Assembly (NCBI GenBank): GCA_963823555.1
Contig: CAWGMA010000001.1
Location: 1,184,001 to 1,248,000, forward strand
Origin: Candidatus Eiseniibacteriota bacterium
GTDB taxonomy: Bacteria > Eisenbacteria > RBG-16-71-46 > CAVPCR01
Length of the DNA stretch: 64,000 nucleotides
Direction: 5' to 3'
In this document: positions 28,772 through 64,000 of the stretch, in pieces
Numbering within the stretch: position 1 is the first letter of the stretch
Layout of the letters: every line of letters begins with the position of its first letter
Notes under the pieces: model-generated
Seen by the model: the letters and a program-made list of their open reading frames with translations, nothing else
Databases searched by the model: none
What the model was told of the DNA's origin: nothing
Program-made: the position numbers and the translations under genes

Positions 28772-29476
28772 ATGAGGAGTTCGTTACTTGCCATCGCTCT
28801 CGTCGCCTGTCTGATCCCGGCGGCGGCCCTGGCTCAGTGGTCGGATAACTTCGACGCGTATGCGCCCGGGGGCCTGATCGGACAAAGTCCCTGGGATGGC
28901 TGGCAGGGGAACCCTGCCGCGGACGCGAATGTCACCGCCGCGCTATCCCGCAGTGCTCCGCACTCGGTCGAGATCTTGCCGACCTCGGATGTGGTCAACG
29001 ACATGGGTGCGCTGTACAGCTCCGGCCAGTACAGGCTGACTGGCTGGTGTTACGTTCCTGGCAACGCGACTGGCTCTCAGTACATGATCGTGACGAACAC
29101 GTACGTTCTTCCAAACACCTTCAATTGGTCGGCCCAGATCCTGTTTGACGGGACTGCGGGCGTCGTGGAAGACGACGTGACGGGCGCTCCGGGCGGTGGT
29201 GACCCCACGTTGCCGCTGATCCGCGACCGCTGGGTGCGGTGCGAGCTGCTGATCGACCTCGATACCGATAGCCAGACCTTCAGCTATGACGGTCAGGTGC
29301 TCTACACGGATACCTGGACCAACCATGTCAGCGCGAACGGAAGCCTCACGATTGCGGTGATCGATCTCTTCTCGAATGGTGGTGATTCCATCTACTGGGA
29401 TGACCTGGAACTCGTCGACCTGGGCGCCACCGCGGTCGAGCCCTCGACCTGGGGGCAGATCAAGAGCCGCTTCTAG
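28772..29476 (+). CDS. Secreted beta-sandwich (lectin/LamG-like) protein with C-terminal TWGxIK tail
   Basis: Signal peptide ending ALA-Q, SD AAGGAGG, ends ATAVEPSTWGQIKSRF. Confidence 0.8.
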   Translation: MRSSLLAIALVACLIPAAALAQWSDNFDAYAPGGLIGQSPWDGWQGNPAADANVTAALSRSAPHSVEILPTSDVVNDMGALYSSGQYRLTGWCYVPGNATGSQYMIVTNTYVLPNTFNWSAQILFDGTAGVVEDDVTGAPGGGDPTLPLIRDRWVRCELLIDLDTDSQTFSYDGQVLYTDTWTNHVSANGSLTIAVIDLFSNGGDSIYWDDLELVDLGATAVEPSTWGQIKSRF

Positions 29477-29510
29477 GAAACCCCCTCTTCGGGGAGGTAT
29501 CCGCCTTCGA

Positions 29511-29548
29511 GCAGAGGCCCGGGAATCCTCAGATTCCCGGGCCTCTGC
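29511..29548. terminator. Perfect 17-bp hairpin between convergent genes
   Basis: GCAGAGGCCCGGGAATC-CTCA-GATTCCCGGGCCTCTGC; no clear U tract. Confidence 0.65.
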
Positions 29549-29571
29549 ATGCGCGCTCGCCCGGTGGCTGC

Positions 29572-30360
29572 TCAGGCTGCGGGAGTTCCGCCCGGGCCGC
29601 CCTTGCCGCGATCCAGGGCATCGATGAACGGGCGGAAGAGATCGATCGGAATCGGGAACACGGTGGTCGAGTTGTTCTCGGTCGCCACCTCGGCGAGCGT
29701 CTGCAGGTAGCGGAGCTGGAGCGCGATCGGAGTGGCCTGGATGACCTGGGCGGCCTCGGACAGCTTCTGGCTCGCCTGGAACTCGCCCTCGGCCATGATG
29801 ATGCGGCTTCGCCGCTCGCGCTCGGCCTCGGCCTGCCGCGCCATGGCCCGCTGCATCTCCTGCGGCAGGTCGACATGCTTGATCTGCACGCTCGAGACCT
29901 TGATGCCCCAGGGATCGGTGTGCTGATCGAGAATGTGCTGCAGCCGCTCGTTGATCTTCTCGCGCTCGGCCAGGAGGTCGTCGAGCTCGACCTCGCCGAG
30001 GACGCTGCGCAGCGTGGTCTGGGCCAGCTGCGAAGTTGCATAGAGGTACTTCTCGACCTCGATGATCGCCTGGCGGGCATCGATCACACGGAAGTAGACG
30101 ACGGCGTTCACCTTCATCGACACGTTGTCGCGCGTGATGATGTCCTGGGGCGGCACGTCCATGGCCACCGTGCGCAGGTCGACCTTGACCATGCGGTCGA
30201 CGATGGGGATGAGGAGAATGAGGCCCGGACCCTTGACTCCGATGGCTCGACCGAGCCGGAACACCACAGCGCGATCGTACTCCTTGAGTATCTTGATCGC
30301 ACTCGAGAGGATGAAGATGCCGAGCAGGACGACGACCATGATCGGCGAAATCGGTATCAT
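29572..30360 (-). CDS. SPFH/stomatin (slipin) protein
   Basis: [38 protein letters not shown]. Confidence 0.95.
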
Positions 30361-30410
30361 GACGGTTCCCCCCTTCCCGGGACGCGCGCGGCGCCCCCCA
30401 AAGCGCGCCT

Positions 30411-31802
30411 CTAGCCGCCGGTGCTCCCGCCTTCCGGCGCGTCGCGACCCGTGATCGGGGCGACCCTGAGCAAGAGCCTCGTTCCGGATTCAACTCGCAC
30501 CCGGTCGCCGACCGCGATCGGCGCGTTCGCCTCCGCCGTCCACAGCTCACCGTGAACGAGTACGGTGCCCGGGCGTCCAGGGTGGATCTCGGCCCGGACC
30601 ACACCCTGTTCTCCGATCAGGGCGGGGAGCCCCGTAGCGGGCCGCCGTCGCTGCGCCATCATCCCCTTGGTGACCACGAACATGAAGAAGAGCGCGGTGG
30701 TGGCCACGGCGGGCAAGATCACTTCGAGGCGGATGCGGAGGAAGTCGGCCTCCAGCGATGGATCGATGTCGATGAGCATGAGCGATCCGAAGAACATGGC
30801 GATGACCCCACCGATCGTCAGGACGCCGAAGCTCGTGACCTTGATCTCGAGGATGAAGAGGATGATGGCAACGAGAATGAGGAGCAGGCCCGCGTAGTTG
30901 AGTGGCAGCGTGTGCAGGCCGTAGAAGGCCAGGATCATGCAGATGCTCCCGGCCACCCCGGGCAGGATGCTTCCGGGATTGTAGAGCTCCAGGAGGAGGC
31001 CGAGCATACCTAGTGTGAAGAGCACATAGGCGATGTTCGGGTCGGAGACGTAGTCGAGCACGCGGAAGCGCCAGTTCATGGTCAGGCGCTCGATGTGCGC
31101 GCCGCGGGTCGCCATCGTGACCTCGCCGCTCTCGAGGCGGACGGTGCGGCCGTCGAGCGCGACGAGGAGGCTGTCGAGACTCGGCGACACGAGGTCCACG
31201 ACGTCGATCGCGAGCGCCGAGTCGGCCGTCACGGACACCGCCCGCCGCACCGCCAGCTCCGCCCATTCCGCGTTCCGCTCGTTGCGCTGGGCAAGCGAAC
31301 GGATGAAGGCGACCGCGTCGTTCTCGGCCTTGCGCGCCATGACGGAGTCGGTCTGGGCCCCGCCCAGGTTCACCGGGGATGCGGCGCCGATGGCGCTCGC
31401 CGGGTGCATGGCGGCAACATGGGATGCATACGTGACGAAGACCCCCGCCGAAGTGGCCGTCGCTCCGGCGGGGGAGACGTAGGTCACGAATGGAACGCGG
31501 GAGGCGAGGATCGTCTTGGCGATGACGTGGGTCGACTTGTAGAGGCCGCCGGGAGTGTCCAGCTCGAGGATCACAGCCGCGGCGTCATCCTCCTCGCCAC
31601 GCTCGATGGTCTCGCGGATGTACTCGGCGGCGACCGGGTTGATCGCCCCGTCGATCGTGATCACGTAGACGAGGGGCTCATCGGCCTCCAGGCGTCCAGC
31701 GCCGCAGAGGAGAGAGACGACCGCAAGAGCAGCCGCCAGGGTGAGACGAACGGCGACCATGGCGCGGCGGCCAGGTGGTGGATTGGAAGTCCATCGGCCC
31801 AT
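30411..31802 (-). CDS. nfeD: NfeD membrane serine protease (long form)
   Basis: LDTPGGL, ATSAG, IGAASPV, VHGELW; canonical partner of slipin. Confidence 0.92.
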
Positions 31803-62659: not shown

Positions 62660-63556
62660 ATGACACGCAGGGCAGTTGGCGCGCTATGCGTCGTGGTCCT
62701 GGCGGCCGCGCTTGCATCAGGCTTCGTTCTCTCCATGCCTGCCATCGCCCAGAATCTTGTCTACAACGGCGATTTTGAGTACGGCAACCAGGGTTTTGTG
62801 TCCGAATACTCCTATTCGCCCGGTAACATCTGGGCCGCGAGGACCTACGACATCGTCACTGATCCTAGCCACTCGCATCCGTACGCCGTTTCCTATGGTG
62901 ATCACACCACGGGTTCTGGCCTGATGATGGCCGTCAATGGCGCCACGGACGGCGGGTCCGTAGTCTGGTCGCAGACAATCCCGGTGGCCCCCGGGTCTCG
63001 ATATGTTTTCTCCATCTGGCTCTCCTCTTGGGTCGAGGACTCGCCAGCGCAACTCGACCTGCGCTTCAACGGCCAGCCTGCGGGGATGATCTCCGCTCCT
63101 ATGACCACCGCGCTCTGGGAGCGATCGGAGAGAACTTGGGACTCGGGCGGCAACACCACGCTGGTCATCAGTATTGTCGATAGAACCACCGCCTTCGGAG
63201 GAAACGACTTCGCCCTGGATGATCTATCGATGACTCTCGCCGAACCGGCAGCCGCAACCGGAGAGCCTCAACCGTCGGTTCTTCCCTCCGTCCGTGCATT
63301 CCCGAATCCGACAAGTTCGCACACGAGCCTGGCCATCACGGGAGTCCCCGCTACCTCGTGCCGTGTCGACATCTACTCTGTAACCGGGATTCTGGTTCGA
63401 AGCCTAGCTTGCTCGGCTGGCGGAGCCGGAGAGGAGGTGGTCATGCTACCGTGGGACGGACGAAATCGGGACGGTCAACCTGCGGCGCGTGGCGTCTACC
63501 TGGCTCGACTTCACGAGTATCCGACAGTTGAAGCCAAGATCGTCTTGGTTCATTAG
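62660..63556 (+). CDS. Secreted carbohydrate-binding-like protein with C-terminal FlgD-Ig / T9SS-type-A-like domain
   Basis: Signal peptide; NLVYNGDFE, GNDFALDD; AFPNP...IYSVTGILVRSL...WDGRNRDG...GVYLARL. Confidence 0.8.
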   Translation: MTRRAVGALCVVVLAAALASGFVLSMPAIAQNLVYNGDFEYGNQGFVSEYSYSPGNIWAARTYDIVTDPSHSHPYAVSYGDHTTGSGLMMAVNGATDGGSVVWSQTIPVAPGSRYVFSIWLSSWVEDSPAQLDLRFNGQPAGMISAPMTTALWERSERTWDSGGNTTLVISIVDRTTAFGGNDFALDDLSMTLAEPAAATGEPQPSVLPSVRAFPNPTSSHTSLAITGVPATSCRVDIYSVTGILVRSLACSAGGAGEEVVMLPWDGRNRDGQPAARGVYLARLHEYPTVEAKIVLVH

Positions 63557-63715: not shown

Positions 63716-64000
63716 TCACCGCCGGCCGCTGGCGCGCCCCGCCCCCTCGACCTTGATCCGGCCCCAGGTCGCCGGGGCGACAGGGGTCACGAGCGGGAGA
63801 TCATCGGCAATGAAGATGTCCCAGTTGCCGTTGCGGTGCGAATGAAAGGCGATGCGCTGCCCGTCGGGTGACCAGCGCGGGCGCGTGTTGTAGAGCCCGT
63901 CGGTGGTGATCGGGACCGCGAAGGATCCATCCTCGGTCATGATCCAGATGTCGAACGGCAGCTGGGTGAGTTGATCGAGGTTCAGCACGCCGTCGCCCGG
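63716..64000 (-). CDS. TolB/PD40 beta-propeller protein, C-terminal part, with TWGxIK tail (5' end outside window)
   Basis: PRWSPDGQRIAFHSHRNGNWDIF; VTPVAPATWGRIK. Confidence 0.8.
   Translation of the reverse strand, partial: PGDGVLNLDQLTQLPFDIWIMTEDGSFAVPITTDGLYNTRPRWSPDGQRIAFHSHRNGNWDIFIADDLPLVTPVAPATWGRIKVEGAGRASGRR

Follow-up and report, generated by a model that had tools for sequence, protein, structure and literature searches.

A short C-terminal tail on exported proteins of Eisenbacteria and its possible link to type IX secretion

The gene at positions 28772-29476 of the window (the whole stretch of 64,000 nucleotides that was analysed) encodes a 234-aa protein that starts with MRSSLLAIALVACLIPAAALA/QW and ends with ATAVEPSTWGQIKSRF*. 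The original prediction held that this TWGxIK tail, also found on a PD40 protein of the window, is shared by unrelated exported proteins and serves as a secretion, cleavage or attachment signal. The locus thus raises two questions: whether the tail is a genuine tag, and which system might read it.

The tail in the window and in the source genome

The features of the window that bear on these questions are as follows.

28772..29476 (+): 234-aa exported-protein gene, with signal peptide, jelly-roll domain and C-terminal tag
28772..28834 (+): putative Sec signal peptide, residues 1-21, ALA/Q (from the sequence; heuristic call SPI)
28835..29419 (+): passenger, ConA/lectin-like beta jelly-roll, residues 22-216 (AlphaFold2, Foldseek), without a Pfam family
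29423..29476 (+): tag copy 1, residues 218-234, G-A-T/A-V-E-P-S-T-W-G-Q-I-K-S-R-F* (from the sequence)
29447-29464 (+): TWGQIK core of copy 1 (from the sequence)
29432 (+): putative P1' of the PorU-site-like T/AV in copy 1 (presumed cleavage)
62660..63556 (+): 298-aa protein with a terminal FlgD-Ig/T9SS type A-like CTD (PF13860, E 2.8e-6)
63716..63793 (-): tag copy 2 on a PD40/TolB-like propeller protein, whose gene runs past the window end

In the AlphaFold2 model of the window protein, residues 22-216 form a confident jelly-roll (mean pLDDT 87.6). The tail lies outside this domain, which stops at residue 216, and a helix at 227-233 was modelled with low confidence (pLDDT about 60). Since the fold ends before the tail, the model rules out that the tail is an integral strand of the domain. 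With the passenger model, Foldseek returned ConA-like folds, and the best matches were TtX122A/B (TM about 0.53-0.55). An identity as a clostridial neurotoxin binding domain was rejected, because the TM values of 0.36-0.44 represent generic jelly-roll likeness. The tag stands at the protein end in 21 of 23 near-length homologues. On the 3' side of the stop codon (29478-29550), two GC-rich inverted repeats were seen by eye and are probably a terminator, and a NfeD + SPFH/Band 7 gene pair (29572-31802, -) is convergent with the tagged gene.

The DNA pattern of the tag matched twice in the window, versus 0.05 matches expected from 100 shuffles. In copy 2, TWGRIK (63752-63769, -) is followed by an 11-residue extension and Pro occupies the putative P1'; the 5' end of this PD40-type protein is outside the window. 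Its gene lies tail-to-tail with the CTD gene at 62660..63556, an instance of the long signal alternating with the tag. The 298-aa CTD protein also gave weak matches to TIGR04183 and to the PorU and PorZ C-terminal models. Of the candidate partners named in the original prediction, the window encodes a rhomboid (PF01694), an AAA_22+SPOR ATPase and an STT3-like GT-C protein, and no link between these and the tag was found here.

The source genome (4.62 Mb, 67% GC, four contigs) was searched with [ST]WGx[IVL]K. Among 59,860 six-frame ORFs, 108 matches were detected, whereas four permuted control motifs gave 3, 8, 4 and 3 matches genome-wide. The match lies within 25 residues of the stop in 107/108 cases, where position alone would put 21%. 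Thus, the motif is common and C-terminally biased, as the original prediction expected. A position matrix gave the consensus [GC]-[AP]-[TV]-[AP]-V-E-[PA]-[SAT]-T-W-G-x-I-K-[AS]-x-[YF]-R*, with hardly any gain over the strict matches.

By home-made heuristics for genes and signal peptides (the first gene caller missed 22 of the 108 motif matches), a signal peptide was called in 70/107 tagged ORFs at the best-scoring start and in 83/107 at a near-best start. The corresponding values were 167/800 and 231/800 for other genes, and 143/262 and 185/262 for CTD proteins. About seven of the 24 tagged ORFs without a call have a signal peptide by eye. Many tagged ORFs without one (e.g. C1:145977-146665) resemble frameshift fragments, which are probably assembly errors. 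The 105 tagged passengers fall into 64 unrelated families. Both the enrichment for signal peptides and the N-terminal diversity foreseen in the original prediction were therefore observed. The same holds for the lack of a TM helix, as no TM segment was detected in 105 tagged proteins. The tagged ORFs have a median length of 230 aa, and the largest called has 503 aa; the median of the CTD proteins is 618 aa. When 59 tagged proteins were scanned against Pfam, 22 matched a family (beta-helix, PKD, CHRD, LTD, PD40, CBM, cytochrome c and others) and none had a model covering the tail. An NCBIfam scan of 52 tails gave nothing beyond one match at E 1.2.

Two further loci were recorded. At C1:1650359-1653470, there are three tandem lipoprotein-like tagged genes; in two of these, the tag is present once more internally, between duplicated domains. 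The gene at C3:702719-703483 encodes a tagged multiheme c-type cytochrome which, if exported, is a candidate for surface electron transfer.

Open-access full text yielded no paper with the tail motif in several spellings, no Eisenbacteria paper on a C-terminal sorting signal or type IX secretion, and no paper that pairs Poribacteria with a C-terminal motif, although there are papers that mention both Poribacteria and type IX secretion. The tail is a real and genome-wide C-terminal tag, and apparently an undescribed one.

Relation to type IX secretion and to known signals

SprA (451 bits; cut-off 200) and PorU (475 bits; cut-off 420) were detected in the source genome. The PorU gene adjoins a PorV-family gene, and the genome has more PorV-family barrels as well as 150 or more PF13860 matches. 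A local CTD HMM found 265 CTD ORFs, and in 262 of these the CTD is terminal (FlgD-type). With the same HMM, no CTD was detected on the 108 tail ORFs. Thus, the tail and the CTD are mutually exclusive. Eleven of the 64 tagged passenger families occur also in CTD proteins. In seven swapped tail/CTD pairs, the homology runs up to the linker, with [AGP]-[VI] mostly in register. For example, the domain of the window protein is followed by PT/AV and a FlgD CTD in homologue P0025, and by AT/AV and the tail in the window protein. The likeness of the linker to those of T9SS cargo, which had been pointed out in the original prediction, is in agreement with these swaps and with the co-occurrence with SprA.

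The same domain ends in a dockerin-like module in homologue P0023. Among P0023, P0026, P0027 and P0028, it carries terminal dockerin-like repeats or a short FLP-containing tail, presumably of a kind typical of Chloroflexota. Thus, the domain pairs with several kinds of terminal tag.

Of the 107 tagged genes, 38 adjoin a CTD gene, whereas 1000 random draws gave a mean of 13.4 and a maximum of 23; among other signal-peptide genes, this was observed in 15/152. A looser PorU-like site was found in 154/220 CTD linkers versus 270/839 control windows. At the putative site of the 107 tails, the residue pair is small+V/I in 50, Pro+V/I in 38 and another pair in 19. K/R occupies position -6 in 83% of the 262 CTDs. 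In the 83 short-ended tails, Lys is at -5 (60%), -6 (29%) or -4 (11%) from the C-terminus, and the Lys at -5/-6 together with the terminal Arg parallels the CTD end.

No dedicated receptor gene recurred near 93 tagged loci, near the T9SS genes of three other genomes or near the single-copy gene described below. One PorV2-like clade is common to all four sampled lineages, and the NCBIfam PorV2 model is not specific to them. Co-folding of a PorV2-like barrel with the tail scored 0.01 against a mark of 0.32, in an analysis in which the controls did not fold. Downstream of porU-porV, at C1:706584-715022, unannotated genes are possible accessory parts of the SprA/PorV/PorU system; homologues of two of them lie next to PorV-family genes in Poribacteria (L162) and Fermentibacterota (L172).

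The closest known signal is compared here in detail. Like the T9SS type A CTD (TIGR04183/PF18962; here FlgD_ig PF13860), the tail forms the C-terminus of proteins that start with a Sec signal peptide and have a folded passenger, and it has a conserved Lys 5-6 residues from the end (motif E) with a terminal Arg/Lys. A PorU-like site in the preceding linker is shared in part, with small+V/I in 50 of 107 tails and Pro in 38. Both occur in the same genomes, on the same passengers, where SprA, the PorV family and PorU co-occur. However, the CTD extends about 100 residues past the site, whereas the tail has a median of 15. The CTD is an Ig-like 7-strand beta-sandwich, and the tail is helix or coil in two AlphaFold2 models. 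The CTD has motifs B and D (GxY); the profile of 107 tails has neither, but an invariant W-G. Furthermore, unlike the CTD, the tail has passengers capped near 500 aa and was not found in GldN-positive genomes. Thus, the tail is not a type A CTD, since its fold and length differ and motifs B and D are missing.

Other signals were compared in the same way. According to PMC11969387, Prevotella intermedia has short CTDs of 40-55 aa, which fold as three-stranded sheets and retain motifs B, D and E, and the PorU site consensus is PT/GI. These CTDs are shortened signals like the tail, and PT/GI resembles the T/AV, T/AI and S/GI before the tag; however, the tail is a third of their length and has at most an E-like end. 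For T9SS type B/C CTDs, passages of PMC10202324 and PMC12618676 indicate that the shuttle barrel differs between signal classes. Unlike the tail, these signals are domains of 100 residues or more, and type B cargo usually adjoins its shuttle gene, as tagged genes do not.

LPXTG, PEP-CTERM and GlyGly-CTERM resemble the tail as short C-terminal motifs on many unrelated exported proteins. They are tripartite signals, in which the motif is followed by a TM helix and a basic cluster; the tail has neither (TM 0/105). Thus, the tail is not a tripartite sortase-type signal. A BAM beta-signal was also rejected, because the tail has Lys where that pattern needs a hydrophobic residue and the passengers are not barrels.

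Distribution across lineages

In the phylum of the source genome, 149 of 151 genomes matched the T-only pattern, most with 10-90 copies (controls 0-6). Family f9 of this phylum gave 0-5 T-only matches, and it has few tags despite SprA, PorV, C25 and many CTDs. It was dropped as a tag-negative control because the HMM shows 2-4 real tags. A lamin-tail-like tagged protein (C1:312520-313191) is syntenic and kept even in tag-poor f9 (L026, L028, L034, L042); its gene is near a lamin-tail + CTD-like gene and barrel genes.

A scan of a genome collection gave at least 80 loci. Fourteen of these 80 were dropped, being out of frame or in an ORF under 100 aa, and 66 have an in-frame terminal tag; one of the 66 (L057) is a membrane protein and probably a chance match. 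The lineages among the matches listed include Poribacteria, Eisenbacteria, Latescibacterota, Krumholzibacteriia, Fermentibacteraceae, Ignavibacteriaceae and others, and the ORFs among the matches listed have a median of 272 aa and a maximum of 511 aa. Similar tails had been anticipated in Poribacteria, Latescibacterota and Eisenbacteria; they occur there and, in addition, in Krumholzibacteriia and Fermentibacterota. In the ESM Atlas, one weak match (0.75) to a 71-aa Poribacteria cluster was obtained, as a lead only.

SprA_N matched in 27 of the 31 tag-bearing genomes behind the listed loci, weakly in Poribacteria, and in four there was no match. PorU-type C25 proteins were detected in 20/20 tag-bearing genomes searched (15/15 of those behind collection loci), and the PorV family and FlgD CTDs in 5/5 each; the PorV-family matches number 7-19 per tag-bearing genome. 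The canonical Bacteroidia T9SS has a GldKN ring and a GldLM motor. In contrast, GldN (PF19841) was found in 0/32 tag-bearing genomes versus 5/5 Bacteroidota controls, and likewise in 0/85 of the carriers described below, by one Pfam model that may miss diverged copies. GldM was found in 0/5 genomes, in a search without a positive control. This check of the ring (PorKN/GldKN) and the motor (PorLM/GldLM) covered N and M.

The tagged protein of Ignavibacteriaceae has 138 aa and consists of a signal peptide, an FN3-like domain and the tag. It represents a single-copy family of 130-146 aa with a near-invariant tail and no Pfam or NCBIfam model. The family was matched in 60/61 genomes of its class, and 31/31 loci read end in the tag. 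The same FN3 domain directly precedes the CTD in seven source-genome proteins.

Of 301 genomes of the Bacteroidota phylum, 85 have the strict pattern of this tail, in 84 of them as a single copy; the control gave 0. All 85 carriers are SprA-positive, and the pattern is carried by 0/64 SprA-negative and 0/74 GldN-positive genomes, although this profile consists of few whole lineages and not independent events, so that the counts overstate independence. The SprA-negative group is probably the Chlorobiota without SprA, which are mentioned in part of PMC12611786. Among the remaining 79 SprA-positive, GldN-negative genomes, at least 21 have the full gene by HMM, and the single-copy gene is thus present in at least 106 of 164. 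In up to 58 of the 164, the strict pattern and a listed full-length gene were both missing. In 21 SprA-negative and 19 GldN-positive genomes, a loose pattern matched at near the control level, and none of 30 such loci fetched had a terminal tag. In one genome (G328), a repeated DNA element gave 31 loose-pattern matches versus 8 for the control, and it is not a protein tag at the one locus checked. Phylogenetic profiling against T9SS genes, suggested alongside the original prediction, thus linked the strict pattern to SprA. The single-copy FN3+tail gene is a candidate undescribed T9SS-associated gene.

Small residue + V/I stands at the putative site in 60/67 single-copy tails, and the tail is coil in the AlphaFold2 model of the family. 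Named carriers are Rhodothermus marinus (WP_012842694.1), R. bifroesti, Rhodocaloribacter litoris (WP_228350195.1) and Cyclonatronum proteinivorum (WP_124245596.1). The gene has housekeeping neighbourhoods, and at many loci (L238-L251) it is upstream of pyrR or the pyr operon. In the source genome, a tagged gene with a cohesin-like passenger, recognised by eye (C1:377798-378346), is also just upstream of pyrR. This shared position may be conserved or a coincidence.

Possible functions of the tail

We propose, with moderate confidence, that the tail serves as a minimal signal that targets proteins to a SprA/PorV/PorU type IX-like export system without detectable GldN. Its terminal position, the signal-peptide enrichment, the cap near 500 aa, the exclusion of and exchange with CTDs, and SprA without GldN were observed; export, receptor binding and cleavage are what the proposal would add. 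After Sec export, the folded passenger would present W-G-x-I-K-x-x-[YF]-R, in which the invariant Lys and the terminal Arg would be placed like CTD motif E. The Lys near the end is functionally important in type A CTDs, according to a passage of PMC10994853. A PorV-family barrel would bind the tail in the SprA pore. PorU would then cut the copies with a small residue after [ST] (T/AV, S/SV, T/AI), and these would be released or lipid-linked, whereas copies with Pro in that place would likely stay uncut. Sites of the form T/E/D/N|G/A/S are given for PorU in an excerpt of PMC10202324. In F. johnsoniae, as part of PMC10994853 states, loading of the translocon is energy-free and release of the cargo requires energy. 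Therefore, release without detectable GldN calls for an explanation, and the size cap may, speculatively, reflect it.

Several results weaken this proposal. According to PMC10994853, the interface of the type A CTD with PorV and SprA buries about 1,850 square angstroms, an area that 15 residues could hardly match. Even the shortest CTDs described so far are much longer than the tail, which is also without motif D or an Ig fold. Pro is at the putative P1' in 38 of 107 tails, some tagged proteins (lipoproteins, the multiheme cytochrome) could be periplasmic, and no dedicated receptor gene adjoins tagged genes. In addition, since f9 and up to 58 of the 164 genomes have few or none, the tag is not needed for the SprA system.

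The lipoproteins, the cytochrome and the Pro residues would suit another reading, in which the tail is an amphipathic docking peptide of the periplasm or outer membrane through which small proteins are anchored to the membrane or to a conserved envelope protein co-travelling with SprA. The modelled helix at 227-233 is consistent with this, and W, I and Y/F at 1, 4 and 8 with basic residues fit a membrane-binding helix, a pattern seen in MinD-type targeting sequences. However, that helix has low confidence and is absent in the second model, and the hydrophobic moment of the tail is greater at 170 than at 100 degrees. The invariance of W, G and K suggests that a protein recognises the tail, and the in-register CTD exchange, the clustering with CTD genes and the 0/64 SprA-negative genomes point to T9SS. 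We consider docking rather unlikely.

CTD genes are found next to tagged genes at three times the chance frequency. This could also be explained if the tail attaches to a carrier or scaffold that bears a CTD, and is co-exported with it or captured by it, as a dockerin is by a cohesin; the small size of the tagged proteins and the dockerin-like end of P0023 are compatible with it. However, no single carrier family recurs beside tagged genes, the PorU-like site before the tail would be left unexplained, and the single-copy gene sits among housekeeping genes, so such capture seems improbable. The PorU-like site itself, which starts about half of the source-genome tails and 60/67 single-copy tails, and the C25 proteins in 20/20 genomes would agree with a signal for processing or turnover only, recognised by PorU or a tail-specific protease in proteins that are exported by a different route. 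As no other outer-membrane route is indicated, and the size cap and CTD replacement fit transport better, we regard processing alone as very improbable. The claim of a secretion, cleavage or attachment signal in the original prediction is thus supported by the CTD exchange and the SprA co-occurrence, whereas sorting, cleavage and attachment are what we infer.

In all T9SSs studied, the removal of cargo from SprA depends on the GldKLMN energy chain (PMC10994853). A doubtful extension of the targeting proposal is that the tag is the signature of an ancestral motor-less type IX secretion in at least six FCB-related lineages. The FN3+tag protein of Rhodothermus and Ignavibacteria would then be a core part, for example a release factor that takes the place of GldKLMN in freeing cargo from the SprA-PorV site, and Bacteroidia would have lost the tag on gaining the motor.

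To our knowledge, all described T9SS signals are folded domains. If the targeting proposal is true, a 15-residue signal in SprA systems without detectable GldN would be a new signal class, and it would provide a handle on how SprA systems manage without the known motor. For protein display, too, a short export tag would be useful, and the cultured carrier Rhodothermus marinus makes the tail directly testable. In uncultured Eisenbacteria and Poribacteria, the tail reveals a hidden, mostly unannotated putative secretome of up to about 2-3% of genes.
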